Assembly (NCBI GenBank): GCA_965263275.1
Contig: OZ253668.1
Coordinates: 795,154 to 859,153 of the forward strand
Length of the DNA stretch: 64,000 nt
Source: Thermodesulfobacteriota bacterium
GTDB lineage: Bacteria; Desulfobacterota_D; UBA1144; Nemesobacterales; Nemesobacteraceae
Reading direction: 5' to 3'
Shown one piece after another: positions 5,702 through 59,526 of the stretch. The notes under the pieces are model-generated. The model saw nothing but the letters and a program-made list of their open reading frames with translations, ran no database searches and had not been told where the DNA came from. Position 1 is the first letter of the stretch, and every line of letters begins with the position of its first letter. The position numbers and the translations under genes were made by a program.

Positions 5702-5759
5702 AAAAATCCTTGATTCGTCTGCTTTCCCGGTAATTCATAAAACCGGTTTCAGACGGAGA

Positions 5760-8620: not shown

Positions 8621-8629
8621 GAGAGAGGG

Positions 8630-9181
8630 CTACTCCAGTTCGTCCCTTTTCCATCCCCTGCCGGTATCGACTCCCACAAGGCCTAAAAGTTTGTCCACAT
8701 ATCCGCTCACCACGTCCGAAATCGATTCGGCACCCATGTAGTCAGTCGGAGAAATCGGCGCGATCACGACTCCCTCGCGGGAGAGCCGCAGAGCGTTTTC
8801 AAGGGCGATTGTGCCAAGCGGGGTTTCCCGCAGGGCAATTATGAGCTTTCTTTTCTCCTTGAGCGCGACGGCCGCTATTCTGGTTATGAGTGTGTCGGCT
8901 ATGCCGTTTGCGATTTTCGCAAGCGTTGAAACCGAACAGGGCACTATGACCATGGAATCGAAATGGTTGCTTCCAGAGGAAAAAGGTGACGCCAGGTCGG
9001 AATCATTGTAAATATCGGTTACCCAGGGACGCATTTCCTCGACCTTGAGGCCGAGTTCCTCGTGAAGGACCCTCTTTCCCCATTTGCTTGCCACCAGATA
9101 TTTCTCATCGGGACATCTTCTTAGAAAATCAACCCCGTAAGCAACCCCTGAGGCCCCGGTAATTCCGACTATAGTTCTCAT
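8630..9181 (-). CDS. ubiX: flavin prenyltransferase UbiX
   Basis: 183 aa, MRTIVGITGASGVAYGV...VIVPCSVSTLAKIANG typical of UbiX/Pad1. Confidence 0.85.
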   Translation of the reverse strand: MRTIVGITGASGVAYGVDFLRRCPDEKYLVASKWGKRVLHEELGLKVEEMRPWVTDIYNDSDLASPFSSGSNHFDSMVIVPCSVSTLAKIANGIADTLITRIAAVALKEKRKLIIALRETPLGTIALENALRLSREGVVIAPISPTDYMGAESISDVVSGYVDKLLGLVGVDTGRGWKRDELE

Positions 9182-43805: not shown

Positions 43806-44022
43806 CTCATGACTCCCGGTGTGTTTCAGGAAAAATTTTTAAGAGAAACTGTAAGAAAACAAAAACCTGCTAAATCCCGTTTCTATAAAATCTCCCACAA
43901 CATACTTTGACTATTGAAACTATGTGGTTAAAATTATTATACAAATAACTGAAGAAAAATAAACCGGAAGACTTTCTTCGGGGCATTATTGTCCCCGCCA
44001 TTGATTAAAAATTACGAAAATA

Positions 44023-45723
44023 ATGAATAATATGGATAAATTTACCGCAGACAGAATCAACTCCAGCTTAATCGTGATGCTTTCCGCGGTTTTCACCGTT
44101 TTTCTCCCGTGGTTTCCCGCTACCGCTTCAAGTCAGGATTTACTGAAACCACACACATCTCTGGAAGAAGCACAGATCGAATTCGTCGAGTTAGCTCAGA
44201 GAGCTGAAGAAATCGAGGAAGTGGACACTGATACCGCGGCCCAATTGTCTTCTGACTCTGGCGAACAAACCCCACAAGTTCCCCTGACACAACCCGAGGC
44301 CGGGGAAATCGGGGAAACGGATACCGTTACGGCGCTCCAACTATCTTCTGACCCTGACGAAAAAATCCTTCAAGCTGACCAGACAGAACCCGGGACCGAA
44401 GAGATCTCAGCGGTCGAGGACACGGAAACTTCACAGGATTATGAGGACATAAAATTCGAGATAAAGAGAAACTCAAGGGTTGAGCATTACATCCGCCGGT
44501 TCTCAGGAAAAGGAAAGGAAGGCTTCGCTACGATTCTCAACCGCTCCGGGAAATTCCTTCCGGAGATTAAAAAAACGCTTCTCTCCGAGGGAATTCCTTC
44601 AGACATCGCGTATCTGCCGCTTATAGAAAGCGGATTTAACCCCCGTGCCGTTTCAAGAAAGAGCGCCGTCGGTCTCTGGCAATTCATAAGACCGACCGGG
44701 CTGAGATATGGACTAAAAGTAAACTATTGGGTAGACGAGAGAATGGATGTCGAGAAATCGACCCTGGCGGCAGCCAGATATCTCAAGGAGATGTTTGACG
44801 AATTCGGTTCATGGGAACTTGCCCTAGCCGCCTACAACTGCGGAGAGAGTAGGGTGTCTAAGGCCATCACCAGAACAGGTTCGACCGACTTCTGGACACT
44901 TTCAAGGAAGCTCCCGAGAGAAACAAGAAACTATCTGCCGAAATTCAACGCCGCTTTGATAATAGCCAAGAACCCGGAGAAATACGGCTTCAGGATTATG
45001 GAAGCGGAGAAAGATTATGAAACTGTAAATGTTCCGCCCAGAAAGAGTCTCGCGGAAATCGCTAACCTGCTTGACATGGGGTACAAGGAAATTTCCAGGT
45101 ACAACCCCTCACTTATCGGACTTACCACTCCTCCTGGAGAAAGCTATGAGCTTAAGGTTCCCAAGGGCTACGGGGAGAAACTCGTTTCAGTCCAAAGCCA
45201 GGTGGTGGCCCTAAAAGACATTGAAATTCCTTTCAGGACAAGACCCACGAGATACACGGTGAAACCGGACGACAGTCTCTGGAAGATAGCCAGGCGATTC
45301 GGAACCTCCATCGAGAAACTCAAGTACGCAAATCGCCTCTCCAGTTCAATCATACGTCCCGGACAGAGGCTTAAGATACCCACAAGAGGAAATGTCGTAT
45401 ACGTAAAGCACAAAATTCGTCCCGGGGAAAACATTTACGTCCTGGCGAAAAAATACGGCGTTTCCATTGACGAGATAAAAAGGGCTAACAACCTCAAGGG
45501 TTCGCTTATAATAGCGGGGAAGACCCTTTCAATCCCCCAGAGACTTTCCTCCACTTACGTGCAGCGGGACGTTCCGAGAAAAATGAGCCACAAAATAATA
45601 CCCGGCGATACTCTGAGCGAGCTGGCGCTTCGTTACAGGGTATCGGTCTCCCAGATCAAGAGATGGAACAACTTGTCCTCAACCACCCTGATCGCCGGAA
45701 GAAATCTCGTCATTTACAAATAA
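44023..45723 (+). CDS. mltD: membrane-bound lytic murein transglycosylase (MltD-like): SLT domain plus three LysM repeats
   Basis: N-terminal signal/anchor, acidic tandem-repeat region, SLT motifs (ESGFNPRAVSRKSAVGLWQF, AAYNCGESRV) and three C-terminal LysM domains (YTVKPDDSLWKIARRFG, HKIRPGENIYVLAKKYG, HKIIPGDTLSELALRYR). Confidence 0.75.
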   Translation: MNNMDKFTADRINSSLIVMLSAVFTVFLPWFPATASSQDLLKPHTSLEEAQIEFVELAQRAEEIEEVDTDTAAQLSSDSGEQTPQVPLTQPEAGEIGETDTVTALQLSSDPDEKILQADQTEPGTEEISAVEDTETSQDYEDIKFEIKRNSRVEHYIRRFSGKGKEGFATILNRSGKFLPEIKKTLLSEGIPSDIAYLPLIESGFNPRAVSRKSAVGLWQFIRPTGLRYGLKVNYWVDERMDVEKSTLAAARYLKEMFDEFGSWELALAAYNCGESRVSKAITRTGSTDFWTLSRKLPRETRNYLPKFNAALIIAKNPEKYGFRIMEAEKDYETVNVPPRKSLAEIANLLDMGYKEISRYNPSLIGLTTPPGESYELKVPKGYGEKLVSVQSQVVALKDIEIPFRTRPTRYTVKPDDSLWKIARRFGTSIEKLKYANRLSSSIIRPGQRLKIPTRGNVVYVKHKIRPGENIYVLAKKYGVSIDEIKRANNLKGSLIIAGKTLSIPQRLSSTYVQRDVPRKMSHKIIPGDTLSELALRYRVSVSQIKRWNNLSSTTLIAGRNLVIYK

Positions 45724-45730
45724 ACCCCGG

Positions 45731-46375
45731 ATGTTGACAGTACGGTCAATAAGGGAAAACCTTCCGAGCAAAGCTCCCGAGATACGCTTCAAACTCAGGG
45801 AATTTGAAAACGTTATCAAAAACGCTTCCGAAGAGGTAATTTTCGAGGAACTGGTTTTCTGCATATTCACGGCCGGGACAAGCGCCAAGATGGGGCTAAG
45901 CGCGATTCGCGCTGTAAGGAACATACTTCCGAGCGCAAGCGAGGATGAACTCAGGGAGAGGCTTCGCGGAGTATACAGATTTCCAAACGTGCGCTCAAAA
46001 CACGTGATCCACACAAGGGACTATCTTGCCCGCGAGTACGGACTCAAGCTAAGGCCGCTTCTTCTCTCCTTTGAAGATCCGGTTGAGAGAAGAGATTTTT
46101 TCGCACTTAACAGCGACGTAAAGGGACTTGGTTTCAAGGAAGCAAGCCATTTTCTGAGAAACATCGGTTTTCGCGGCTACGCAATACTTGATAAGCACAT
46201 ACTCCAGTGCCTTTTCGAACTCGGTATAACGGAATCTGCCCGGGCACCACACTCAAGGTCGAAATACATCGAGATTGAAAACAAGTTTAGAAGTTTCTCG
46301 GAGAGAAACGGATTTGATTTTGATGAAATGGACCTGTTTCTCTGGAGTGAAAAGACAGGCGAAATACTGAAATAA
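45731..46375 (+). CDS. Ogg2-family 8-oxoguanine DNA glycosylase/AP lyase (HhH-GPD), copy 1
   Basis: 214 aa, VKGLGFKEASHFLRNIGF matches the archaeal/Thermotoga-type Ogg2 helix-hairpin-helix Lys region. Confidence 0.6.
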   Translation: MLTVRSIRENLPSKAPEIRFKLREFENVIKNASEEVIFEELVFCIFTAGTSAKMGLSAIRAVRNILPSASEDELRERLRGVYRFPNVRSKHVIHTRDYLAREYGLKLRPLLLSFEDPVERRDFFALNSDVKGLGFKEASHFLRNIGFRGYAILDKHILQCLFELGITESARAPHSRSKYIEIENKFRSFSERNGFDFDEMDLFLWSEKTGEILK

Positions 46376-46400
46376 CGCCTCGAAAAACAGGGGTCTCCGA

Positions 46401-47051
46401 ATGACGGAAAAAGAAAAACGAGAACTCCTAGAACTTTATGAGCTTAAAAAAGAAGAAATAAGGAACCAGCTTTTGGAATTCAAAGAAGCTTTTCAAGAAG
46501 CTGACGACCACCAGATCTTCTGTGAACTTTCATTCTGCATACTGAGTTCCGGGGTCGGTCCCAAAATAGCTGGTCAATGCATGAGGGCCATAGGAGAAAA
46601 GCTCGCGGACGGAGAAGAAGATGAACTGCTAAGCAGCCTTGAAGCAATTCACAAATATGCCGAGAACGTGTCCCGCTACATTGTTTTTACCAGAGAATAT
46701 CTTAAAAAAGAACACGGATTTCTTCTGAAATCACTTGTCAGTTCCTTTGAAGACAGGGTGGAAAGAAGAGACTTTTTCGTAAAAAACCCCGGGATCAAAG
46801 GGCTTGGATACGTGCAGACAAGCCATTTTCTAAGGAACCTAGGATTTCCCGGTTACGCAATTCTTGACCGAAACAACATAACATCTCTTTTTGAACTGGG
46901 GATTATAAGCGAGGCGAAATATCCCCCGACAAAAAAAAGATATCTTGAAACCGAGAACCTGATGACGGATTCCGCGCGCGAACTGGGAATGAGTCTTGAT
47001 GAATTTGACCTGCTTCTTTGGTCAAGGAAAAGAAAATATGTCCCGAGGTAA
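46401..47051 (+). CDS. Ogg2-family 8-oxoguanine DNA glycosylase/AP lyase, copy 2 (divergent paralog)
   Basis: 216 aa, IKGLGYVQTSHFLRNLGF. It is collinear with copy 1 over the full length at roughly 40% identity, 25 nt downstream. Confidence 0.6.
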   Translation: MTEKEKRELLELYELKKEEIRNQLLEFKEAFQEADDHQIFCELSFCILSSGVGPKIAGQCMRAIGEKLADGEEDELLSSLEAIHKYAENVSRYIVFTREYLKKEHGFLLKSLVSSFEDRVERRDFFVKNPGIKGLGYVQTSHFLRNLGFPGYAILDRNNITSLFELGIISEAKYPPTKKRYLETENLMTDSARELGMSLDEFDLLLWSRKRKYVPR

Positions 47052-47053
47052 GA

Positions 47054-47773
47054 TCACCCGGAGGCGCATCTTATAAAAACCTCAGCCCAAAGCGGTGCGA
47101 ATCCGTCCGCGGTATCGTGAAAAGCCCCCCTGTACCTGTTAAGACCCATTATGCCGTCGGTATAGTCCTTGTAGGCCGTCTGGCTTCTGTGCGCTTCAAT
47201 AGCCCGGCGCTTGCGGTCGGCAAAAGGGGTTATATCCTCAATACGGTCGTATGAGGGAAAAGGTGTCCATACTTCATAAAACCAGCATTCGCACTCAAAA
47301 GCATCCGCGTCGGTCGCGGCGCTCAGGCAATCAAGCGTCAGTCGGGAAACTGTTCTGTGGGTTTTGTGTTTGTCAATTTCGGGATGGGGGATGTATATCT
47401 CATTTGGACAGAGCTTGGTTATAATTTCCAGCATCCTGGAACTGAATTCATGCTTGTTCGCATCAGATTCCATATCTGCAAAACCAAGAAGGGAAAGCTC
47501 CACACCAAGTGCCCTTGAAGATTCCCTGACTTCCCGCTCCCTCGTCCGTATAAGCTCCTCCCGCGTAATACCCCTCGGGTTTGCGCTTCTCCTCCCATCG
47601 GTAACGACAACGGAAATCACGTCCATACCTTTTTCCAGAAGCAGGCACACCGTTCCTCCCATGCCTATCTCAAGGTCATCGGGATGCGGGGAAATTATAA
47701 GGGCTTTTGCGTCGGACATATGAATTTTCTCGATAAAAAGATTGCCGGAATCTACATTACACCGTGAATTCAA
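47054..47773 (-). CDS. PIG-L/LmbE-family N-acetylglucosaminyl deacetylase
   Basis: ALIISPHPDDLEIGMGGT motif. The real start is likely Met at about 47719. Confidence 0.7.
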   Translation of the reverse strand: MNSRCNVDSGNLFIEKIHMSDAKALIISPHPDDLEIGMGGTVCLLLEKGMDVISVVVTDGRRSANPRGITREELIRTREREVRESSRALGVELSLLGFADMESDANKHEFSSRMLEIITKLCPNEIYIPHPEIDKHKTHRTVSRLTLDCLSAATDADAFECECWFYEVWTPFPSYDRIEDITPFADRKRRAIEAHRSQTAYKDYTDGIMGLNRYRGAFHDTADGFAPLWAEVFIRCASG

Positions 47774-47881
47774 ATTAGAAAAATGCCAAGAAGCACTCGT
47801 CAGATGCTTTCTCGGATAACATTCTACGGTGCCAGAGGTCTATAGAACAGAAACCCACTGATTCAGTAATAATTAACATGG

Positions 47882-48799
47882 CTATCTATGTTTTGAAGAA
47901 GATTCTGAAAGGACATTTACCAGCAGGTCGTGCTGCTTTCTGTGCTTATCAGGGTTTGTGTCTCGTAGTTTCTTCAAATTCTGAAGCTTCCACTGAACTG
48001 CTGGAAATTGTTCAAAGTCATAAAGACTCCAATCAGGTTCAGCATTGTCAGCACGTAAAAGAAAATCCTTGTCTTCGTCAGTAAGAGACACATTTATCAT
48101 CCAAATTAGTTTATTTCTAGCTTTTTCGTATTCCTCGTAGGAGAAAGGTTCACGTGACATGCCTTCAAATTGGTTCTCAAAGATATCTCTTTGGTCTTGC
48201 GGTCGCGGGGCAAGCAATTCATACATCGGCCTGTCACTACAAAGCAGACCGTATAAAAAACCACGTTTTATGTCATTGAAAAAACCTTCTTGATCCATAA
48301 GCGGACTTAAGTCAAAAAAATCTCTGGGGTGCTGTCGATCCAGGGCCGCACAGACCTTGCCACCATAGAGTTGGCTTGTTGGCACCAAATGCATCGCACA
48401 AAACGTATCAAACTCTGATTGCGCACTTTGGCAGAGCTCTAATTGTTCAGGAGGCGCAATAACACCCCGTTTTACCATGTTCACTTCAATTTTTGTTTGT
48501 GCACCTGAGCGAGAGATAAAAAGCTTGCAGACATTTTGTTGATGAACAACCTGCATGCCTCTCTTTTTTGATTCAATACCACTTTTTATTCTGCTTAACC
48601 CTTGATTGATATTATTCAAAGATGTATCCCTGTCTTCAAGCGGCACATAGGTTAAATCAATGTCAACGGACAGACGTGGCATCTCACGCACGAAAAAATT
48701 AATTGCCGTACCACCATGGAGCACAAAGCAGGATTGCTTTGCCACCTCAGGCAAAACTTCAAGCAAAAGTTCCACCTGTTCTTTATAGTCCTGTCTCAT
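47882..48799 (-). CDS. abiEii: nucleotidyltransferase AbiEii/AbiGii toxin-family protein (type IV TA / abortive-infection component)
   Basis: 305 aa, LHGGTAINFF...RLSVDIDLTY pattern of the AbiEii (DUF1814) family. Located in a low-GC island. Confidence 0.65.
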   Translation of the reverse strand: MRQDYKEQVELLLEVLPEVAKQSCFVLHGGTAINFFVREMPRLSVDIDLTYVPLEDRDTSLNNINQGLSRIKSGIESKKRGMQVVHQQNVCKLFISRSGAQTKIEVNMVKRGVIAPPEQLELCQSAQSEFDTFCAMHLVPTSQLYGGKVCAALDRQHPRDFFDLSPLMDQEGFFNDIKRGFLYGLLCSDRPMYELLAPRPQDQRDIFENQFEGMSREPFSYEEYEKARNKLIWMINVSLTDEDKDFLLRADNAEPDWSLYDFEQFPAVQWKLQNLKKLRDTNPDKHRKQHDLLVNVLSESSSKHR

Positions 48800-49568
48800 T
48801 GCTCTTTGCTTCTAATTCCTTAGGAACAGTGATTTGATACTTTGGCACATAAACACCATTAGTCAGAAGACTTCGTTTGCCTTTGCCCAAATCGATTTTT
48901 TCTAAATCCAGAAAATTAAACCAGTCATGCTCCGCTTTCTCGCTCATATACAAAAAAAGCCGCTTCACTTTCACCGAACGGCACTGCTCAAGCAATGTCT
49001 GCACTTGGGCAGGTCTTAAATTGTTAAGTCCCTCCATCAACTCAAAGGCCTCAAGCAAAGACTGCTTTTCAGGCGCAAGATAAAGGCATTCCATTAGTGC
49101 TCGCGCAGCCCCGGACACATTGACGGAAAAAGTTTTCAGTTCAACGCTGGTCAGTCCCAGTTGTGGGGGAAGAAAGGAAGATGCGCGGTAGTAAACATCT
49201 AACTCCCAATCATACTTCTTAAACCAAAGGGGTAATCTTTCGCTAGCATGACCAAATAATATTGCCCGTTTCGGGGACAATTCAAGATAATGGGATTTAC
49301 CGAGCAATGATAAAGCAGTTCGACCACCAGGGTGAACACTTAAACCTTGCTGTTTTTGCAGGGCATAGACCGCACCCAAATAATCAACTTCGTCTCCCGC
49401 ACGGACCATAGCACCCGCACCTATTGATTCAAACCAATAACTGCGTCGATAGCGTTTCTGAAGATCCAGGCTGTAACCCCGCTCTGCCAGCCATGGTGAC
49501 AAGAGTACAACTCCTCTAGGTACAGTCCTTAAGAGTCGGTTTATTTTAGAATTATTTTGGGTACTCAT
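48783..49568 (-). CDS. abiEi: AbiEi antitoxin-like transcriptional regulator
   Basis: 261 aa, winged-helix-like N-terminal region. It lies immediately upstream of the AbiEii gene, which it overlaps by 17 nt, the usual AbiEi/AbiEii pairing. Confidence 0.55.
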   Translation of the reverse strand: MSTQNNSKINRLLRTVPRGVVLLSPWLAERGYSLDLQKRYRRSYWFESIGAGAMVRAGDEVDYLGAVYALQKQQGLSVHPGGRTALSLLGKSHYLELSPKRAILFGHASERLPLWFKKYDWELDVYYRASSFLPPQLGLTSVELKTFSVNVSGAARALMECLYLAPEKQSLLEAFELMEGLNNLRPAQVQTLLEQCRSVKVKRLFLYMSEKAEHDWFNFLDLEKIDLGKGKRSLLTNGVYVPKYQITVPKELEAKSNETGL

Positions 49569-49824
49569 AGTACCAATATATAATATTCTTTAAACCTAGT
49601 CAAGAATAAAGTTTATTAAACAACTTTTAAAGGTACTAAAAGTCCTTTTAAACATTATTTTATAAACCGACAATCTACTATACCTAATCCTCCCAGAACA
49701 TGTTGTTCCAGCATCCATGTTCAAAACTCAAGTAGAAATACTTAAGCAGGGTTGCCTGCGGGCCAAGCGCATATATAATCTTCGCTCGGTTATCTTTATC
49801 AAAATTCCCCTGAAGGAACAACCA

Positions 49825-51255
49825 ATGGAATACGAAGCGGTAATCGGTCTTGAAGTGCATGCGCAGCTTGCCACCGAATCAAAGATATTTTCTTCTTCCT
49901 CAACTAAATTCGGAAGTCCTCCCAATTCCCAAGTGAACCCGGTCTGTCTTGGAATGCCGGGGGTGCTGCCGGTTTTCAACGAAAAGGTTCTTGAGTACGC
50001 GATAAGAGCGGGATTGGCGACCAACTGCGAAATTGCCCTGAAATCCAGATTCGCGAGGAAGAACTATTTCTACCCGGATCTTCCGAAAGGCTACCAGATT
50101 TCCCAGTACGATGAACCACTGTGTCTTCGGGGACACCTCGAGATAGATCTGGGGAACGGTAAAAAGAAAATCAGGATAACCCGCATACACCTCGAAGAAG
50201 ACGCAGGGAAGCTCGTGCACGAATATTCCGACTTTGAAAGCTACGTGGATCTGAACAGGGCTGGAGTGCCCCTTGTGGAAATAGTGAGCGAGCCTGACAT
50301 CTCAACCGCCGAAGAAGCGGTCAAATACGTAAAGAAACTGAGAACCATCTTGAGATATCTTGAGGTCTGCGACGGAAACATGGAGGAAGGAAGCCTGCGC
50401 TGCGACGCGAATGTTTCCGTGCGACCGGTAGGACAGAGCAAACTTGGAACGAAAACCGAGATAAAGAACCTGAATTCATTCCGTTTTATACAAAGAGCCA
50501 TAGAATATGAAACAAAGAGGCATGAAGCGGTTCTGCGAAGCGGAGGAAAGATTGTTCAGGAAACAAGGCTTTTTGACTCCCAAAGAGGGGTCACGTTCGC
50601 AATGAGATCAAAAGAAGAAGCTCACGACTACAGGTATTTTCCAGACCCGGATCTTCTGCCGGTTGTAGTGGAAGAGGATTACTTAGAAGAAATCCGTCTC
50701 TCCCTTCCAGAGTTGCCCGATGAAAAACTCAGCAGGTTCGTGGATGAATTCTCCATATCGAAAAACGACGCGGAGACACTTTCGTCCTCAAGACCGCTCG
50801 CGGAATATTTTGAAGAGTGCACAGAACACGCAAACGACAAGAAGGCTGCAAGCAACTGGATTTTAAACGAGCTACTAAGAGAGGTTGAAAACGAGGACAG
50901 GATAAGGGGATTCCCCGTCAAGCCCAAGGATCTTGCCGAACTATTAAACATCCTCGGGGAAGGAAGAATAAACCGCAAAACCGCCAAGGAAATATTTTCC
51001 GAGATGATAAGCGGAGGTAAAGGCGCCGAAGAAATAGTAACGGAGAAGGGGCTTACCCAGATTACGGATGAAGACGAGATTTCTTCAATTATAGCAAAAA
51101 TAATTGAAGAAAGTCCAGAGGAAGTCGAGAGGTACAGGGGCGGGGACATGAAGCTTCTAGGCTTTTTCGTCGGTCAGGTGATGAAGGCAACAAAGGGAAA
51201 AGCCGACCCCGCGGTTGTAAACCAAACGCTCAGGAAATCCCTCGAAAAAGAATAA
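49825..51255 (+). CDS. gatB: Asp-tRNA(Asn)/Glu-tRNA(Gln) amidotransferase subunit B
   Basis: MEYEAVIGLEVHAQL N-terminus with GAAGGA RBS. The track ORF extends upstream to 49717 without conservation. A C-terminal YqeY-like domain is present. Confidence 0.9.
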   Translation: MEYEAVIGLEVHAQLATESKIFSSSSTKFGSPPNSQVNPVCLGMPGVLPVFNEKVLEYAIRAGLATNCEIALKSRFARKNYFYPDLPKGYQISQYDEPLCLRGHLEIDLGNGKKKIRITRIHLEEDAGKLVHEYSDFESYVDLNRAGVPLVEIVSEPDISTAEEAVKYVKKLRTILRYLEVCDGNMEEGSLRCDANVSVRPVGQSKLGTKTEIKNLNSFRFIQRAIEYETKRHEAVLRSGGKIVQETRLFDSQRGVTFAMRSKEEAHDYRYFPDPDLLPVVVEEDYLEEIRLSLPELPDEKLSRFVDEFSISKNDAETLSSSRPLAEYFEECTEHANDKKAASNWILNELLREVENEDRIRGFPVKPKDLAELLNILGEGRINRKTAKEIFSEMISGGKGAEEIVTEKGLTQITDEDEISSIIAKIIEESPEEVERYRGGDMKLLGFFVGQVMKATKGKADPAVVNQTLRKSLEKE

Positions 51256-51319
51256 CGTAATTCTTGAGGATGAGAGGGGATACTACGCGCGGCGATGAAA
51301 CCCCAGAAAAAACGGCAGC

Positions 51320-51838
51320 ATGAAGAATTCCAAAAAAATACTAATCATTGCCGGACCCAACGGCGCTGGAAAAACTACATTTGCCGCGGAGTTCCTTCCT
51401 AACGAGGCTCGCTGTCCGACTTTCATAAACGCAGACCTGATAGCGGCGGAACTTAACCCGCTTCAACCGGATCTAGCGGCAATTCAGGCTGGCAGGCTGA
51501 TGCTGAAGATGATTCACGACTGCGTGGAAAAAGAGGAGAGCTTTGCCTTTGAGACCACCCTTAGTGGACGTATCTACACACGCATGATTCCCCTTTGCCA
51601 AAAAGAGGGTTACCTAATAAAACTGCTATTCTTGAGATTACCGATACCGGAAATGGCTATAGCCCGTGTCAGGCAGCGGGTCCTAGAGGGAGGACATGAT
51701 GTACCGGAACAAACAATCCGTCGCCGGTTTCATTCCGGGTGGGACAATTTTCAGTTAGTTTATAAAGATATGGTGGATGATTGGAAAGTGTACGACAGTT
51801 CCGGAGGCATCCCTATACTCATCGAGCAGAAGGATTGA
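51320..51838 (+). CDS. zeta-toxin-like P-loop kinase (AAA-family ATPase, Zeta_toxin domain)
   Basis: 172 aa, ILIIAGPNGAGKTT Walker A...FINADLIA...SFAFETTLS pattern typical of short zeta-toxin/UNAG-kinase-like proteins. Confidence 0.5.
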   Translation: MKNSKKILIIAGPNGAGKTTFAAEFLPNEARCPTFINADLIAAELNPLQPDLAAIQAGRLMLKMIHDCVEKEESFAFETTLSGRIYTRMIPLCQKEGYLIKLLFLRLPIPEMAIARVRQRVLEGGHDVPEQTIRRRFHSGWDNFQLVYKDMVDDWKVYDSSGGIPILIEQKD

Positions 51839-51840
51839 CT

Positions 51841-52044
51841 ATGGCTACGCAGAAACAACAAGGTTTAGGTCAGGATAAGGAATTGTGGAATCAGGATTTG
51901 GTTGGTGCGGAGGCGGCGATGCTAAGAGCCGCCAAGCTAGCATGTAGCAGGGCCATAGAAACCACTGGTTCGGTAGCTATTTTCAGGGATGGCGAGATCG
52001 TCTGGGAAAAGGATATAAGAAAAATTTTCCCGGAGGATAACTAA
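51841..52044 (+). CDS. small hypothetical protein (67 aa) immediately downstream of the zeta-like kinase
   Basis: The ATG at 51841 overlaps the stop of the kinase gene (TGACTATGG). No recognised domain. The track ORF 51781..52044 has a longer upstream start inside the kinase gene. Confidence 0.25.
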   Translation: MATQKQQGLGQDKELWNQDLVGAEAAMLRAAKLACSRAIETTGSVAIFRDGEIVWEKDIRKIFPEDN

Positions 52045-52105
52045 GGCAACTGATTCTAGCGTAAGAACCTCAGCCTCAGAGGCTGGAAGTGTTCAAGACA
52101 TCCTC

Positions 52106-53368
52106 TCAACCCGAAGATCGCCCGCTTTTTATATGCTCCTCAAACTCGTCCCTGAATTTTCTCACTATCGAGTCAACAGGCATGGCGCAACCATCTGCAA
52201 GGGCACATATGGTTGTTCCCCTCATCTGCGAGCATGCGTCAAGTATTATGTCGATGTACTCAATTGACCCTTTACCTTCGTCAATCTCTCTCAGTATCTT
52301 TTCAAGCCACCACGTTCCTTCCCTGCACTGAACGCATTGCCCGCATGACTCATCCCTGTAGAAATGGGCAAGATTCTGGGCTACCTTCACCATGCTCACC
52401 GTTTCATCCATCACCGTTACGCCAGCCGTTCCAAGCATTGAACCCGCGGCCGCCATGGAATCGAAATCCATCGCAATGTCCAGTTCATCCGCGGAAAAAA
52501 CCGCGGAAGAAGAACCGCCGGGAGAAACAGCCTTTATTCCCTTTCCCCCGAGAACTCCTCCGCCGTACTCTTCAATCAGTTCAAGAAGGTTTATTCCGAG
52601 GGGAAGTTCGTAAAGCCCAGGTTTGTTTACGTGCCCGCTTAGCCCGAAAATCTTGGTTCCCGTGTTTCTTGGAGTACCTATTGAGGCAAACCAATCCGCC
52701 CCGTTGTTTATTATATGCGGAACGCAAGCGAGCGTCTCCACGTTATTAACTATGGTGGGACAGCCGAAAAGGCCTATCTGGGCCGGGAAAGGAGGTTTTG
52801 GCCTCGGTTCTCCCTTCTTCCCCTCTATTGACTCAAGAAGACCGGTTTCCTCTCCGCATATGTAGGCGCCGGCGCCGATGTACAGCTTGATATCGATATC
52901 AAAACCGCTTAGAAGTATGTTTTTGCCGAGATAGCCGTGCTCGTAGGCTTCCCCTATGGCCTGCTGTACCCTTTTAGCTCCGTAGGGCATCTCTCCTCTT
53001 ATGTATATGTAGGCTTTGTGGGACCGGATAGCGTAGCAGGCAATTATTATGCCCTCAATCATCTGGTGAGGATCTTTTTCCAGGATCTCCCTGTCTTTGA
53101 AGCTTCCGGGTTCGCTTTCGTCGGCGTTGCAGCAGAGATAGACGGGCTTCTTGGAATCAGGCGGGATGAAACTCCACTTTATTCCCGCCGGAAAACCCGC
53201 CCCTCCCCTTCCCCGAAGACCCGATTTTTTGACCGCGTCGGTTATATCCCCCGGAGCCATTCCAAGGGCCTTTCTGAGCGCTGAATATCCGCCGGAGGCA
53301 AGATATGATTCGATAGTGTAGGAGTCAGGCCTATCGACGTAATTTCTTATGATTCTCTGCTCGGGCAT
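52106..53368 (-). CDS. nuoF: NADH:quinone oxidoreductase 51 kDa subunit (NuoF-like)
   Basis: SGLRGRGGAGFPAGIKW (FMN site), the GAGAYICGEETGLLESIEG NADH site and the C-terminal CGQCVQCREG 4Fe-4S motif. No nuoE or nuoG is adjacent. Confidence 0.85.
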   Translation of the reverse strand: MPEQRIIRNYVDRPDSYTIESYLASGGYSALRKALGMAPGDITDAVKKSGLRGRGGAGFPAGIKWSFIPPDSKKPVYLCCNADESEPGSFKDREILEKDPHQMIEGIIIACYAIRSHKAYIYIRGEMPYGAKRVQQAIGEAYEHGYLGKNILLSGFDIDIKLYIGAGAYICGEETGLLESIEGKKGEPRPKPPFPAQIGLFGCPTIVNNVETLACVPHIINNGADWFASIGTPRNTGTKIFGLSGHVNKPGLYELPLGINLLELIEEYGGGVLGGKGIKAVSPGGSSSAVFSADELDIAMDFDSMAAAGSMLGTAGVTVMDETVSMVKVAQNLAHFYRDESCGQCVQCREGTWWLEKILREIDEGKGSIEYIDIILDACSQMRGTTICALADGCAMPVDSIVRKFRDEFEEHIKSGRSSG

Positions 53369-53497
53369 TTTCGAGTCCGGTTAAAGCAACTTCTAAATGG
53401 AAAAGAGGATAAGTACGGATAAATATTAAATGCGATTGCCGGAATTTTTCAAGAAAAAACGGAAAAAATAAGAGCGGGCGTAAAAAAAGCCTGTCGT

Positions 53498-54712
53498 TCA
53501 CCGCGCCTGCGGCTCTATTTCCTCAAGGAGTATGTCCGCCACATACTTGGCAAATGACATTGAAGAGGTAAAAGCGGGCGATATCGCGTTTAACACGTGA
53601 AGACTGTCCCCTTCTGCGAAGACAACATAATCCATCACGAGCTTTTTCTCTTCCCAGTCCACAAGCTGTGAGCGGATGCCTGTTCTCGCGGAGGAGATAA
53701 GATTGCGGGGAAGAAGCGCGGGAACCAGCTTTTTGGCCTCGGAGTAGAAATGCCGCCCCAGATATTTTTTTGCCTCGGAGAACGCGTTTGCCCTGAAGCC
53801 GCTGTCGCTCATGAACATCGATGCGTTTCTGTAAAGAAAGCGAAACGACTCAAGTCCCAGATCCTCAAGAAACCCGTAGCTCTCCCTCCCGAGAACCGGC
53901 ACGGCTGTAGGGCCGATAAAGACCCGCCCCGAAGTGCTCCTTGTAAAATGCACCCCCAGAAAAGGCATTCTCGCGTCGGGAACCGGGTAGATGTTGCCGC
54001 GGACAAGATGAGAGCTGTTTTCCGTAAGTTCCCTGTAGGAACCCATAAAAGGAATAGATCTGTATTTAAGACCTACTCCGAAATGGCGTGCCACTACGTC
54101 CGCGTGGAGCCCCGCAACGTTTATGAGTTTCCCGTAACTTACGTCTCCCCTGCTTGTAAGAGCGACGCGATCCTCTTTTTTTCCGATAAAAGCCGCATCA
54201 AAAAGCACACGGGCTTTTCCGGTTCTTTTAATTTCGGAGTAAAGGGCTTCGAGAACCCCCAGGGGGTCAAACACGGATGTCGCCGGAGAATATATGGCTT
54301 TCTCAAACGTAACGGCATGAGGTTCTATCTCCGCAAGCTCTTTTTCATCAACAAGATACGATTCCACTCCGTTTCTTTTTGCCCTCTGCTGGAGTTCCAA
54401 AAGTCCCTCAAGCTTCTCCTCAGAGTCCGCCACGATGACCTTGCCACATTCAGATATGGCAACTCCGTTCTCCCGGCAGAAATCCCTCATCAACCGGTTT
54501 CCCTCAATGCAGTACTTTGCCTTGAGAGAATCGGGCGCATAATATATCCCGGCATGAAGAACACCGCTGTTTCGACCGCTTGAGTGCGCTCCGAGACTTC
54601 TTTCCTTTTCCAAAACAAGAATGTTCTTACAACCGCGCAGAAGAAGTTCATTCGTGATGGCAAGACCCACAATTCCCGCGCCCACGACAAGAAAATCGCA
54701 ACTTTTCTCCAT
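53498..54712 (-). CDS. lhgO: FAD-dependent oxidoreductase, L-2-hydroxyglutarate oxidase/dehydrogenase-like (DAO family)
   Basis: DFLVVGAGIVGLAI dinucleotide motif. The DAO-family length is about 400 aa. The track ORF extends to 54844; Met at 54712 fits. Confidence 0.6.
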   Translation of the reverse strand: MEKSCDFLVVGAGIVGLAITNELLLRGCKNILVLEKERSLGAHSSGRNSGVLHAGIYYAPDSLKAKYCIEGNRLMRDFCRENGVAISECGKVIVADSEEKLEGLLELQQRAKRNGVESYLVDEKELAEIEPHAVTFEKAIYSPATSVFDPLGVLEALYSEIKRTGKARVLFDAAFIGKKEDRVALTSRGDVSYGKLINVAGLHADVVARHFGVGLKYRSIPFMGSYRELTENSSHLVRGNIYPVPDARMPFLGVHFTRSTSGRVFIGPTAVPVLGRESYGFLEDLGLESFRFLYRNASMFMSDSGFRANAFSEAKKYLGRHFYSEAKKLVPALLPRNLISSARTGIRSQLVDWEEKKLVMDYVVFAEGDSLHVLNAISPAFTSSMSFAKYVADILLEEIEPQAR

Positions 54713-54796
54713 TACTCCAACCCTTCTCACCCGTTCTCTGGTAAATCGACCGTAAATCAGGTAGATTATCGGTTTTGTATAACTTAACTTAATAAA

Positions 54797-55294
54797 ATGA
54801 GCAAGAAATTTAAAGCAGGGCAAAACGCCGTGTATCCAGTGCATGGGGTGGTTGAGGTTCAGGGAGTCGAAGAAAAGGAGATACTGGGTTCGAGAAAAGC
54901 CTTTTACATACTTAACGTTCTTGAAAGCAACGTAAAACTCATGGTTCCCACGGACAACATAAACTCCGTAGGTTTAAGGCCCGTGGTAGCTAAAAATGAA
55001 GTAAAGAAAATCCTCGACATCCTAAGGGAAGAAGACGGCAAAATACCAAAACTAGGTGTACAGAGCTGGAACAAAAGGTACAAGGAATACGCCGACAAGG
55101 TTAAAAGCGGAGACATCTACGAAATAGCCGAGGTATTGAGGGACATACATCATCTGAAAAGGGTGAAGAATCTGTCCTTCGGTGAGAAAAGAATAATGGA
55201 AAACGCCCTCTCTCATGTAGTCAAGGAACTCTCCATAGCGCTTCGGAAAAAAGAGGGAGAAGTCAACGACCAAATAGAGGAAATCTTCTCCTAA
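54797..55294 (+). CDS. CarD/CdnL-family RNA-polymerase-binding transcription factor
   Basis: 165 aa, FKAGQNAVYPVHGVVEV (CarD_CdnL_TRCF RNAP-interacting domain) plus a C-terminal helical domain. Confidence 0.8.
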   Translation: MSKKFKAGQNAVYPVHGVVEVQGVEEKEILGSRKAFYILNVLESNVKLMVPTDNINSVGLRPVVAKNEVKKILDILREEDGKIPKLGVQSWNKRYKEYADKVKSGDIYEIAEVLRDIHHLKRVKNLSFGEKRIMENALSHVVKELSIALRKKEGEVNDQIEEIFS

Positions 55295-55300
55295 AGCCAG

Positions 55301-56719
55301 TCACTCAAGAATATCCCTTCCGTCAACACCCCGGGGAATATCAAGCCCTAGATAACGGACGATGCTTGAAAAGATATCCGCGGTTCGTACGTAGTCGCAT
55401 TGCGCCGGTCGGCTTATAAGAATGGGGACCACCATGTGGTCTTTGTGCAGGGAGCCGTGGGAACCGTGATGTTCGGGGTTCTCGTGGGTAGCCCTGAGGT
55501 CATAGCCCGGTTTTGAACTCACTACCACATCACCGGTGCGAGGTGATTCGAAAAGCTGGAGAATCTGGAGGGGTGCGTCGGGGTAATCAGAATCTATCGT
55601 GAGTCGAAGCGACTCGGCAGCATCCATCTTCCTTGACTGAAAGCCGTAGCCGAGAGGGTCACCCGAAACATTACGGTAGCAAATGAAACCTTCACGATCT
55701 ACGCTCAAAAGAGCCTCTCCTCTCGGGTTTATTATTTTTACCTCACCACCCGTCCCGCCAGTTCTAGCGCAGACAATGTCCACTTCGGGCCGGCTGGAGA
55801 GATCACCCACTATATCCGCTATTTCTTCGCAGCGCGTATGTCTCTTCCATCCATCGGAATTTTTGAAATAGTAATGTGCCATGGAGTTTCCCGAAACCAT
55901 GACGGATGAATCGGCATCGAGAAAATGCCTCAGCACGTTGGTGTAATAAAGCGGTTTGAAGCCCCGGTTGCGAAGAAAATCCAGGGAATCGAAATGGGAA
56001 TGGGTGGACGTAAGACCATGGTCGCTTCCCACAACGAAAAGCGTATCGTCAAGTTCCCCCCTCTCCGCGATCTTCTTCGCTACCATTCCAACATACCGGT
56101 CAAGCCTTCTGTAGGATTCAATAACCCTCTGGTGAAACGGATGGTAGCGGTGGGAGTAGGAATCTATTGCGGGGAAAACGCAGAAAATAAAACGCGGAGA
56201 ACTTTTAAGGGAGTCAATCAGAATTCTTCCCGCGGCCTCTTCGACACTGTCACTTCTTTCCGTGAAGTGGCTTTTCAAAACCAGATAATATTTAAGATAT
56301 CTGGTTCTGTTGTTCCAAGCGGGCTCTATATCCCTGGTTATCTCGTTAAGAATGCTGACACTTCCCGGTACCAGTCCGAAAAGTGTCGGGGAGTCGCACT
56401 CTATGTCCCGGTTGATAAGAAACGACTGGGGACCCGCATAGCTTCTGAACCTTCGCAGGGAAAAGGGGGTCGCATCGTAATACCTCCTGTCAAACCACCT
56501 TATGCCCGGGAGATTGCATCTGCCGGGGAATCTGCCGAGAAGGTACGGTGTATAAGCCGGACCCGTCGTTGAAGGAAACACCGTGATTCCCTTAAGGAAT
56601 TTTCCGGGCTCTACGACATATTTCTGTATATTCTCAAGATCGCCTCTTTTGAAAAGCTCGGCGAAGACATCCAGTCTAGAGCCGTCGGCAAGAAAAAAAA
56701 CGCATTTCCTTTTATCCAT
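55301..56719 (-). CDS. alkaline-phosphatase-superfamily protein (type I phosphodiesterase/nucleotide pyrophosphatase-like)
   Basis: 472 aa, FVVGSDHGLTSTHSHFD and EHHGSHGSLHKDHMVVPILIS metal-ligand motifs of the AP/NPP/sulfatase superfamily. Confidence 0.55.
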   Translation of the reverse strand: MDKRKCVFFLADGSRLDVFAELFKRGDLENIQKYVVEPGKFLKGITVFPSTTGPAYTPYLLGRFPGRCNLPGIRWFDRRYYDATPFSLRRFRSYAGPQSFLINRDIECDSPTLFGLVPGSVSILNEITRDIEPAWNNRTRYLKYYLVLKSHFTERSDSVEEAAGRILIDSLKSSPRFIFCVFPAIDSYSHRYHPFHQRVIESYRRLDRYVGMVAKKIAERGELDDTLFVVGSDHGLTSTHSHFDSLDFLRNRGFKPLYYTNVLRHFLDADSSVMVSGNSMAHYYFKNSDGWKRHTRCEEIADIVGDLSSRPEVDIVCARTGGTGGEVKIINPRGEALLSVDREGFICYRNVSGDPLGYGFQSRKMDAAESLRLTIDSDYPDAPLQILQLFESPRTGDVVVSSKPGYDLRATHENPEHHGSHGSLHKDHMVVPILISRPAQCDYVRTADIFSSIVRYLGLDIPRGVDGRDILE

Positions 56720-59520
56720 CAGGCGCTTCCCAAAAAATATTTGTTATGAATTCCCCTGATATCCACCGTCACACGCGCGTATTCAGCTTTAAGGGAATCT
56801 CCCCTGCCGCCGAAACCGAACTCAACGGCCATCCGGTCAAAATCGTTCCGTGTAATCTCGTTTTTGGCCCGCTCGTTTAGCAGGCTGAGCAAATTGCCCA
56901 TCCTCCTCAAAAACAGGTAGCCTTCGGCAAGCGTTTCAGACTCCCCCCTCTCAATCAGCCCGGACCGGCCGAGTGCCCTGATAGCCTCCATTGTGCTTAC
57001 CGTTCTGACCTCATGGGTTTCCCCTCCATGGGCAAGCTGAAGCATCTGGACCAGGAACTCCACGTCTATCAGCCCTCCCCTGCCAGTTTTCAGGTTGAAT
57101 CTTGATTCCGTCTCGTTGGCAAGTTCCTTTTCAATTCTCCCGCGAAGTTTGTAAATTTCCTTCGGAAAATCCGGAGCAAGTTTTTTCGCGTAGACGAAAT
57201 TCTCGATGACTTTCATGACCTTCTCACCAAGCGCACGGTTTCCCGCGACCGCCCGGGCCTTTAGGAGGGCCTGTTTTTCCCAAGTAAGCGCGCTTGAATC
57301 ATGGTACTCCTCAAAAGCATCAAGCGAGGTAACAAGGGCTCCCGAGTTTCCAGACGGGCGCAGTTCCACGTCTACCTTGTAACAGAAGCTCTCAGAAGTA
57401 TAAACCGAAAGATTGGATATAAACCTCTGACCGTACTTTGAGAAAAGTTCATGATCCTCTCCCTCGTAAATGAAAATTATGTCCAGGTCGGAAGCATAGC
57501 TCATTTCCCTTCCCCCAAGTTTCCCGAGTCCCAGGACAAGCATGTTATCAAGAAGCTTCCTTTTCCCGGCAGAGCACCTAAGAGACTCCTTGGCAAGCTC
57601 AAGGCTTGAGTCCATCACCACGTCCGCCACCATCGAGAGGTATTTCCCCACGTAGATCGGATCCAGATCCTCGGAAAGTTCTCTGAAGCAAAGCTTAAGG
57701 GACTCAATGTGCTTGAAACTTCGAAGGGCGTTTAGCTTATCCTCAAAAAACTCCTCCTCAGAAACGGCTTCCGTAAGTGCCGAAGCCAAAGCATCTTTTG
57801 AATCGTAGAACCGCGTTACGTCCTTTAATATGATCGAGTCAAGGTACTCTGGATGCCTGATAAGAAAATCGGACAGCATGCCGCCTCTTGAGAAGAGCTT
57901 GGACAGAAGAGAGATGATTTCCGGATTTTCCGTTAAAAGCGCGTAAACTGACATCTTGGAGCCCAGACCGGAGATGAATCTTTCAAGATTCACAAGCGCC
58001 GAGTCCGGGTCGCTCAGCTTGATTATGGTTGAAAGAAAAGCCGGTATTACTTTTTTCGAAAGTATCCTTCCTCTTTCCGTGAGTCCGGCCCTTCTGGGAT
58101 CCACGAGGCGCGATATGATTTCGACCGCGTCGTCCGGAACCGAAAAACCGAGATTGCCAAGAGCTAAGACCGCCTCCTCGTGGTTTACGTTCCCCTCGGC
58201 CATAAAGTCAGCCACTTCCCAGAATTCCCTGCCTCTTTCCTCAACCTGCATGCCCGGGTCGTAGAACAGGTTCCTGTAGCTTTTCATAACAAGCGAAGTT
58301 ACCTCTTCGTAAGCGGCTTTAAAATCATCTGTCCTTTTAAAACCCATCCTCCTCGAGAGCCTTGCAAGTGAATTTTTCTCCGTGGGAATTCTGTGCGTCT
58401 GAACCTCATCCCAGAGCTGTATCGAATGCTCCACTTTTCTTAGGAAAAGATAGCAATGCTCCATCTCTTCCTTTACCTGTTCGGTTATAAAACCCGTCTT
58501 TGACATGGTCCTGAGAGCGTCAAGAGTATTCATAAGTCCTCTGAGCCTTTTTACCGCTCCGCCGCTCATAAGCTGGGTCGCCTGTACGAAAAACTCAACA
58601 TCTCTTATTCCGCCCCTGCCAAGCTTCACATCGTTTTCCTTCCGCACGCCCTCAAGACGAACCTTCATGTCCTTAAGATCCTCTATGGACTCGTAATCAA
58701 GGAACTTGTGGTATATGACCGGTTCAAGCTCCGCCAGAAACTCGCGACCAAGCTCGAGGTCCCCCGCAACCGGGGTCGCCTTAAGCAGCACCGCTCTCTC
58801 CCAGGTCTCAGCCCAGTGGTAATAATGATCAAGTGCCACGTCAATCGATACCGCGACCGGACTCCTGCTACCTCCCGGGCGCAGTCCCAGATCCACTCTG
58901 TAGAGAAAACCACCGGCAGAGACAGAACTTATCGTTCTGGTAATCGAGGAGGAAATCGTGAATATCTGTTCGGCGTACCGCTCGCCTCTGTAAAGATAGA
59001 CAAGGTCTATATCGGAACTGAGGTTAAGAAGCCTCCCGCCGAGTTTCCCCATACCCAGTACCACGAATTCGAATTGATCTCCGCCTTTGGCTCTTGACCT
59101 GTAAAAATCAAGCACCGCCCTGACCACCGCAACAGCAAGATCCGAAATTTCCTCCATGGTCTGGCGAAACGCGCAGAGACCCAGAATTTCTCTGTAAATT
59201 ATTCTCGAAAGCTCTGTGTACTTGTATTCCTTCAGCCTTTCGGAGAGCTGTTCTGAGTCCTGCGAATTCCTCACAACTGAGGCAAGGGGGATTTTGTGGG
59301 AAGAAAGCGTTTTTTTTCTCCCGAGAGCCTTTTTATTCGCGAGTATGTTCAGCGTACGGGGATTTCTTATGATTGAACTGCCGAGGAATCTGCTGTGCGA
59401 GGAAACAGCGTAAATAATTTTCTCCTCTTCCGCAGAAAGCCTGCCATTTATCTCCCGGAATCTTTCAACGGTTAAGCGCCCGTTTCCCTCGTCGGGGAAA
59501 AAAATTTTCTTTTTCATCAC
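56719..59520 (-). CDS. glnE: bifunctional glutamine synthetase adenylyltransferase/adenylyl-removing enzyme
   Basis: 933 aa with two nucleotidyltransferase cores (VVLGMGKLGGRLLNLSSDIDLVYLY and LVLGLGKLGGREMSYASDLDIIFIY), each followed by a GlnE helical domain. Confidence 0.85.
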   Translation of the reverse strand: MMKKKIFFPDEGNGRLTVERFREINGRLSAEEEKIIYAVSSHSRFLGSSIIRNPRTLNILANKKALGRKKTLSSHKIPLASVVRNSQDSEQLSERLKEYKYTELSRIIYREILGLCAFRQTMEEISDLAVAVVRAVLDFYRSRAKGGDQFEFVVLGMGKLGGRLLNLSSDIDLVYLYRGERYAEQIFTISSSITRTISSVSAGGFLYRVDLGLRPGGSRSPVAVSIDVALDHYYHWAETWERAVLLKATPVAGDLELGREFLAELEPVIYHKFLDYESIEDLKDMKVRLEGVRKENDVKLGRGGIRDVEFFVQATQLMSGGAVKRLRGLMNTLDALRTMSKTGFITEQVKEEMEHCYLFLRKVEHSIQLWDEVQTHRIPTEKNSLARLSRRMGFKRTDDFKAAYEEVTSLVMKSYRNLFYDPGMQVEERGREFWEVADFMAEGNVNHEEAVLALGNLGFSVPDDAVEIISRLVDPRRAGLTERGRILSKKVIPAFLSTIIKLSDPDSALVNLERFISGLGSKMSVYALLTENPEIISLLSKLFSRGGMLSDFLIRHPEYLDSIILKDVTRFYDSKDALASALTEAVSEEEFFEDKLNALRSFKHIESLKLCFRELSEDLDPIYVGKYLSMVADVVMDSSLELAKESLRCSAGKRKLLDNMLVLGLGKLGGREMSYASDLDIIFIYEGEDHELFSKYGQRFISNLSVYTSESFCYKVDVELRPSGNSGALVTSLDAFEEYHDSSALTWEKQALLKARAVAGNRALGEKVMKVIENFVYAKKLAPDFPKEIYKLRGRIEKELANETESRFNLKTGRGGLIDVEFLVQMLQLAHGGETHEVRTVSTMEAIRALGRSGLIERGESETLAEGYLFLRRMGNLLSLLNERAKNEITRNDFDRMAVEFGFGGRGDSLKAEYARVTVDIRGIHNKYFLGSA

Positions 59521-59526
59521 GCCGGG

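Follow-up and report, generated by a model that had tools for sequence, protein, structure and literature searches.

The window analysed here is a 64-kb stretch from the small (1.6-2 Mb) genome of an uncultured member of the Thermodesulfobacteriota. Between the genes for a PIG-L family deacetylase and for GatB, it carries two overlapping genes on the reverse strand, abiEi and abiEii, which code for the antitoxin and the nucleotidyltransferase toxin of an AbiE module. AbiE is a well-known toxin-antitoxin (TA) and abortive-infection family. The region is very probably an intact and ordinary AbiE module, carried on a cassette of low guanine plus cytosine (GC) content in a variable spot between PIG-L and gatB, and represents an old acquisition that is shared with some of the relatives. 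The pair is an additional member of a known family, leaves the existing knowledge of AbiE unchanged and serves mainly as a worked example.

The AbiE genes and their promoter region

The antitoxin gene abiEi (48783-49568, 261 residues) is the first of the pair. It is followed on the same strand by the toxin gene abiEii (47882-48799, 305 residues), whose start overlaps the abiEi stop by 17 nucleotides (nt). An earlier note on this DNA had assigned both proteins to AbiE families by resemblance, and profile searches bear out the two assignments. AbiEi contains the domains AbiEi_3_N (PF17194; residues 5-97, E = 8.4e-33) and AbiEi_3 (PF11459; residues 101-249, E = 1.3e-56), and matches the AbiEi model of PADLOC with an E value of 4.1e-87. 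It follows the COG5340-type two-domain antitoxin layout, with a winged helix-turn-helix at the N terminus and a further domain at the C terminus, encoded directly 5' of the toxin gene, and is presumed to be an autorepressor. AbiEii is a DUF1814 protein that matches PF08843 of Pfam over profile positions 3-237 of 238 (E = 1.8e-29; 103.8 bits, cut-off 22.5) and, over its full length, the AbiEii model PDLC02290 of PADLOC (E = 4.5e-114). By these profiles, the gene pair belongs to the subfamily that joins an AbiEi_3-type antitoxin to a DUF1814 AbiEii toxin. An exact-sequence look-up of AbiEii returned no record.

The motifs I (hGG), II (R..DhD), III (KxxAxxxR) and IV (+DxxD) of the pol-beta nucleotidyltransferases were defined by Dy et al. 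2014 (PMC3985639). In an alignment of 42 sequences, including 41 homologues of AbiEii at 55-95% identity, the invariant residues are G29 and G30, followed by R42, S44, D46 and D48, by K148...R155 and by R159-D160-x-x-D163. These residues match motifs I-IV, motif IV reading R159 D160 F F D163, and motifs I and II are separated by the unusual spacing of 15 residues. In the AbiEii of Streptococcus agalactiae the phospho-acceptor is T65 (bioRxiv 10.64898/2026.01.19.700257). S44, located two residues before D46, aligns with this threonine when placed by the R-x-T-x-D-x-D pattern, and its position is also equivalent to S78 of MenT3. S44 is a candidate phospho-acceptor serine.

The AlphaFold2 model of AbiEii has a predicted local distance difference test score of 91.4 and a predicted template modelling (TM) score of 0.89. 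The best match of the model in a Foldseek search of the PDB is MenT4 (Rv2826c, 6y56; E = 8e-6, TM score 0.60), and the next are entries of MenT3/TglT, with E values of about 1e-3. The predicted fold is MenT-like, that of a DUF1814 nucleotidyltransferase.

Upstream of abiEi, a candidate sigma-70-type promoter (TTGACT-17 nt-TATATT; 49575-49603, reverse strand) was located by a consensus scan with 10/12 matches. Its -10 element ends 6 nt before the abiEi ATG. No Shine-Dalgarno sequence precedes this ATG, and a leaderless abiE mRNA is therefore plausible. Two palindromes, candidate operators by their sequence, flank the promoter. The first, O1 (GGTACT-cat-AGTACC, GGTACTatgAGTACC; 49560-49574), is a perfect palindrome that lies immediately after the -10 element and spans the abiEi start codon, and is a candidate operator for AbiEi. 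The second, O2 (GGTACT-aaa-AGTCCT, GGTACTaaaAGTCCT; 49632-49646), is situated some 30 bp upstream of the -35 element and is a candidate second operator. The pattern RGTAYTNNNAGTNCY has three matches in the whole window, all of them at O1 and O2, compared with 0.10 expected by chance. The promoter sequence and both palindromes are kept in four cassettes, that of the window and those of the relatives L082, L083 and L084 described below, and in L082 O2 is a perfect palindrome as well (AGTACTaaaAGTACT).

Composition, age and mobility of the cassette

The stretch 47774-49716 has a GC content of 41.8%, against 49.8% for the whole window. Merely 0.16% of the sliding windows of the same length (1943 bp) are lower, and the minimum begins at 47751. 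The neighbouring genes reach 50-52% (PIG-L) and 47-48% (gatB). The GC content at third codon positions (GC3) is 0.389 for abiEii (z = -3.1) and 0.405 for abiEi (z = -2.8), relative to a mean of 0.551 (standard deviation 0.052) for the 46 open reading frames (ORFs) of the window used as reference. The earlier note had placed the drop at 55% to 40%. The drop itself stands, since this is the lowest-GC 1.9-kb stretch of the window, and its size is corrected to about 50% to about 42%. The AT-rich flanks that were reported are found both in the spacer 5' of abiEi (49569-49716, 28.4% GC) and at 47774-47881 (39.8% GC).

The coordinates 47774-49716 hold for the low-GC stretch and not for the limits of the element, which were set by the longest ORFs. 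Relatives give other limits. The part that is not shared with the AbiE-less relative L002 spans 47788-49749. Between the four cassettes the homology stops at the same places, on the right at ...GTTCAAAAC (about 49727) and on the left at 47908, 8 codons before the abiEii stop. The C-terminal tails of AbiEii therefore vary by context. These ends, read from alignments, delimit a conserved low-GC cassette of 1.82 kb on the reverse strand (47908-49727), which reaches from the promoter region to a point 8 codons short of the toxin stop.

Relatives were found by a GatB genome scan and by exact-protein look-ups, and five of them are informative. L001 is the same strain as the window (no mismatches over 48849-60000, two on the left) and its AbiE has a shortened toxin. 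L082 (about 92% nt identity, GatB 92%) has AbiE at the same site. In L083 (about 82% nt identity, GatB 88%) the order is PIG-L with an inserted TnpB gene, AbiEii, AbiEi, a gatB 5' stub, a gene for a 422-residue porin-like protein and gatB. L002, a Thermodesulfobacteriota metagenome-assembled genome (OZ241855.1, 1.64 Mb; GatB 89%) that is closest to L083, has the porin-like gene only. In L084 (84-91% nt identity) the PIG-L/gatB site lies beyond the contig end. Two more distant relatives, L003 and L004, show the ancestral order. The former is an empty site, with Ogg, PIG-L, a 68-bp gap, gatB and carA, and the latter reads Ogg, gatB, carA. PIG-L and gatB adjoin where nothing has been inserted.

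The synteny comparison confirms that AbiE is an insertion between PIG-L and gatB, as the two genes are 68 bp apart in L003 and a different gene occupies the place in L002. The presence of the same pair with the same low GC at this position in all relatives had been named as a point that would speak against an acquired island. It was found in L082 and L083, and not in L002 or L003.

The identity of AbiEi between the window and L082 is 96.6%, and 85.4% between the window and L083. The corresponding values are 94.8% and 80.3% for AbiEii, 92.2% and 87.8% for GatB, and 90.0% and 81.4% for PIG-L. Across the four genomes, the ratio of nonsynonymous to synonymous substitution rates (dN/dS) is 0.11-0.14 for abiEi and 0.17-0.33 for abiEii; both genes are therefore under purifying selection. 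The synonymous divergence (dS) of the cassette is 0.56-0.58 relative to L083 and 0.56-0.64 relative to L083 and L084, and GC3 of the cassette genes is 0.39-0.43 in every copy, against about 0.55 in host genes. Since GC3 is low in all copies despite a dS of about 0.6, the low GC is not a sign of recent arrival. A caution follows for such regions: low GC does not date an insertion, as a GC3 of about 0.40 was held in a host at about 0.55 across this divergence. By these comparisons the acquisition is old and the genes are maintained, because in both L082 and L083 the pair occupies this site, its GC3 is just as low, and dN/dS is 0.1-0.3. The recent insertion implied by the earlier note is not sustained, given that the two relatives share the site and the low GC3 and that the pair diverges roughly in step with its flanks. 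The cassette would have entered the PIG-L/gatB site before the lineages of the window, L082 and L083 split, and would have kept its low GC3 since. It would then have been lost from L002, and its toxin gene truncated in L001.

The same cassette was found in L084 at another site, between rpmE and hemB (blastn, 83.7% nt identity over window positions 47917-49727; the match to the L083 cassette is also 83.7%, from 47908). In the window, by comparison, 14 bp separate rpmE from hemB. The alignments indicate that the cassette moves as a unit, because the same cassette occupies this other site. Together with the gene of a 496-residue Hanks-type Ser/Thr protein kinase, it forms in L084 a 3.5-kb insert (5517-8900). 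The kinase neighbour may be a coincidence, and is of note since phosphorylation controls AbiEii-type toxins. At least 8000 AbiE homologues were found at E <= 1e-10, across phyla, and they occur on 315 plasmid records. The position in L084 and the plasmid homologues support the horizontal acquisition of the pair that had been proposed.

The earlier finding of no integrase, tRNA or direct repeats holds. No integrase or transposase was present among the neighbouring genes and the large ORFs scanned, all of which are housekeeping, and the nearest tRNA is 14 kb away. A repeat search of 47000-52200 gave short chance-level matches only, with no flanking direct or inverted repeats. A by-eye comparison of the cassette ends for terminal repeats gave an 8-nt shared TGCTGGnA, which was taken as chance and set aside. 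No match was obtained in Rfam for 46500-52500 (E <= 0.1), nor in a phage DNA collection by distant blastn. The traces of mobility are indirect and occur in relatives only, as gatB 5' remnants and as the TnpB gene of L083. This gene, of the IS605 type (L083 9050-10282), is inserted after codon 6 of PIG-L.

In L001, a segment of 2381 bp (6275-8655) replaces 577 bp of the window (47903-48479), which correspond to the C-terminal two-thirds of abiEii. The segment comprises frameshifted fragments resembling leucine-rich repeats (LRR), a 133-bp gatB stub (promoter and 5' end, at 77% identity to the copy in place) and a 118-residue zinc-ribbon-like ORF. Except for the gatB stub, it has no homologue in any fetched locus. 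On the left, its junction is at most 6 bp from the left end of the cassette. The N-terminal remainder of abiEii (48480-48848) differs from the window by 44 mismatches, and everything rightward is identical. Judged by these junctions the segment is a recombination patch, unless the assembly is chimeric. L001 keeps a 122-residue AbiEii fragment without motifs III and IV, and its abiEi is intact, so that a near-identical strain is already without the full toxin and retains the antitoxin.

Decayed copies of the gatB 5' end are present in two of the relatives. In L083 (about 6898-7068), a decayed gatB promoter and the first 27 codons, with ATG changed to ACG and an in-frame TAG, lie between abiEi and the porin-like gene. 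In L001 (8181-8302), a decayed promoter and the first 19 codons lie inside the variable region. Such 5' duplicates were searched for in 70 gatB loci of other taxa and none was found, save unrelated short intergenic repeats. A general gatB integration site was thereby ruled out. The stubs are interpreted as traces of past insertions by which the 5' end of gatB was duplicated or replaced. The mechanism may have been either illegitimate recombination facilitated by homology or an integrative element since lost.

Function and alternative explanations

The mechanism proposed for the module is derived from characterised homologues, namely the AbiE of S. agalactiae, the AbiE-2 of Serratia and the MenAT systems of Mycobacterium tuberculosis. 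By analogy, AbiEii would add nucleotides to the 3' ends of tRNA, which would block aminoacylation and translation and lead to a reversible growth stop. The N-terminal winged-helix domain of AbiEi would bind both GGTACT-N3-AGTACC-type palindromes and repress the operon. Its C-terminal domain would neutralise the toxin, most likely via induced autophosphorylation of AbiEii on Ser44. When the antitoxin supply fails, by phage-induced shut-off or by loss of the locus, the toxin would arrest the cell, and abortive infection and/or addiction may result.

In Serratia sp. ATCC 39006, the AbiEi_3-type system AbiE-2 has a toxin that lowers viability 10^6-fold and disturbs tRNA levels, and that its antitoxin neutralises (PMC7725324). 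This system (AbiE-A2/AbiE-T2) resembles the pair of the window in its AbiEi_3 antitoxin, its DUF1814 AbiEii, its chromosomal location and the first position of the antitoxin gene. On the other hand, it belongs to another host phylum, and the candidate operators and the possible leaderless start are specific to the cassette of the window; the two are likened by family and not by identity. The AbiE of S. agalactiae (PMC3985639; Arrowsmith et al. 2026 preprint) shares with the window an overlapping bicistronic operon, motifs I-IV, the spacing of 15 residues, a Ser/Thr that precedes the first catalytic Asp by two residues (T65 there, S44 here) and paired palindromes at the promoter. The S. agalactiae AbiEi binds two inverted repeats. 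However, the streptococcal antitoxin is of the DUF4095/AbiEi_4 type, as against AbiEi_3 here, and the genes overlap by 4 nt, compared with 17 nt in the window. The inverted repeats in S. agalactiae measure 23 bp and have another sequence and geometry. Transcription of its operon starts 26 bp before the ATG, and in the window the -10 element adjoins the start codon. The S. agalactiae system is carried by an integrative and conjugative element, and the pair of the window is a bare cassette. The best fold matches, MenT4/MenA4 (Rv2826c/Rv2827c) and MenT3/TglT (Rv1045) of M. tuberculosis, are likewise DUF1814 tRNA-modifying nucleotidyltransferase toxins with COG5340-type antitoxins. The identity to these toxins is 14-17%, and their target tRNAs and nucleotide preference are not transferable. 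The AbiE family was recently moved from type IV to type VII of the TA systems, on the basis of toxin autophosphorylation (bioRxiv 10.64898/2026.01.19.700257).

Several points weigh against an ordinary, long-resident AbiE module. The identity of AbiEii to the structurally characterised toxins is just about 14-17%. Sequence searches of the PDB returned no meaningful match for AbiEii and no match of any kind for AbiEi, and none of the NCBIfam models matched either protein. The abiE promoter and the leaderless start come from a consensus scan only. The S. agalactiae AbiE protected Escherichia coli against none of 32 coliphages (0/32), and a defence role is not to be assumed. Besides, the dS between the window and L082 is 0.11 for AbiE, below that of gatB (0.46), PIG-L (0.37) and the second ogg gene (0.30) and near that of nuoF (0.16). 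A single ancient acquisition is thus not a clean account, and the low AbiE value could mean that the cassette was exchanged in the clade at a later time. Over the region 44000-53400, dS relative to L082 varies about fourfold within a few kb, which suggests a recombination mosaic in the population.

Much of the same evidence bears on the other explanations. The low dS to L082, below that of gatB and PIG-L, would also fit a recent, strain-specific horizontal insertion of DNA not yet ameliorated in its low GC, as would the rank of the cassette as the lowest-GC stretch of the window and the lack of AbiE in L002, L003 and L004. Such an event is very unlikely, because L082 and L083 have the same site and the same junction with the gatB promoter, and it is largely refuted by L083, from which the cassette differs by a dS of 0.56-0.58 with GC3 steady at 0.39-0.43. 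That steadiness, in turn, may be taken to mean that there is no island, and that the pair is inherited vertically in the clade with a low GC intrinsic to its genes. The pair occupies this site in 3/4 close relatives, and GC3 is steadily low despite a dS of about 0.6, as in the neighbouring second Ogg copy. Vertical inheritance is less probable again, being contradicted by the empty site of L003 and by the cassette of L084, which lies at another locus with precise boundaries; the different gene in L002 and the homologues across phyla and on plasmids argue in the same direction. The least credible alternative is that the pair is a TA remnant in decay, inactive and no longer of any function. The truncation in L001 indicates that loss of the toxin is tolerated, but both ORFs of the window are full length with every catalytic residue kept, dN/dS is 0.11-0.33 across four genomes, and the promoter and palindromes are conserved.

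The gatB remnants allow a further account, in which AbiE is what remains of the cargo of a larger mobile element. Such an element would have integrated at the gatB 5' end, with its own copy of the gatB promoter and first codons, and would later have lost its integrase and all its other parts by deletion. This is consistent with the pseudogenised promoter and first 19-27 codons of gatB in the variable region of L001 and of L083, where they lie directly next to abiEi. The same slot also holds different contents (AbiE, the porin-like gene and LRR pseudogene fragments), and an IS605-type TnpB gene is located nearby in L083. Nevertheless, this origin is unlikely. The window has no gatB remnant and no att-like repeats, and no integrase among the scanned ORFs; the duplicate occurs in none of the 70 gatB loci of other taxa. 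The remnants do not end at one point, their junctions corresponding to 49881 and 49904 of the window, and homology-facilitated illegitimate recombination with DNA of relatives explains the remnants equally well. It is also rather doubtful, and held with less confidence than the cargo origin, that the bases upstream of gatB and its first 27 or so codons form a recurrent cassette-capture site in this clade, operating with no recombinase encoded in cis. At such a site promoter-bearing cassettes (AbiE, the porin-like gene and a zeta-like pair across gatB) would enter and leave, and each event would leave behind a duplicated gatB promoter and 5' stub. If this were true, the 1.82-kb AbiE cassette would itself be a separate mobile unit with the capacity to move to rpmE/hemB, as in L084. 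The old acquisition of an intact AbiE module remains the preferred explanation.

gatB and neighbouring genes

The gatB gene (49825-51255, forward strand, 476 residues) matches GatB_N (1.5e-127) and GatB_Yqey (1.3e-50), and an identical protein is on record. The PIG-L gene (47054-47719, reverse strand, 221 residues) matches PF02585 (9.2e-25) and agrees with the gene call in L001. The starts of the longest ORFs, 49717 for gatB and 47773 for PIG-L, are artefactual; the conserved starts are 49825 (MEYEAV...) and 47719 (MSDAKA...), respectively. The 108 bp before the true gatB start (49717-49824) correspond to the gatB promoter and 5' untranslated region, both of them intact. The promoter (TTGCCT-16 nt-TATAAT; 49752-49779, forward strand) aligns with the sequence 5' of gatB in L002 and L083 and with the remnants of the gatB 5' end that L001 and L083 contain. 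It marks the right edge of the variable region, and the right end of the cassette (about 49727) lies about 25 bp upstream of it.

The suggestion that the island had cut gatB off from its gat neighbours did not hold. In AbiE-less relatives gatB is a stand-alone gene beside PIG-L or Ogg and carA. No gat operon was therefore split, and a disrupted gatCAB operon was ruled out. No GatA-sized amidase was present among the scanned ORFs of at least 380 residues; gatC (about 95 residues) was not searched for.

On the other side of PIG-L, two tandem Ogg-HhH paralogues (8-oxoguanine glycosylase) are encoded on the forward strand at 45731-46375 and 46401-47051; L004 has one Ogg gene. The second copy is also low in GC (42.5%; GC3 0.42, z = -2.5), and likewise in L082, L083 and L002.

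On either side of gatB there is a small hot spot of gene flux in which TA-like modules collect. A second TA-like islet lies across gatB (51320-52044, forward strand), with a 172-residue short zeta-toxin/AAA_33 P-loop protein (Pfam, 3.1e-8) and, after it, a 67-residue ORF. NCBIfam has no model for either product, and the 67-residue ORF is without family. The window, L001 and L083 have this islet. It is missing from L082, in which gatB and a nuoF-like gene are 25 bp apart. In L002, the position of the islet holds a 573-residue ORF, provisionally labelled transporter-like. Homologues of the zeta-like protein are labelled 'zeta toxin family' on 505 plasmids, the best of them being on a plasmid of Synechocystis PCC 6803 (61%).

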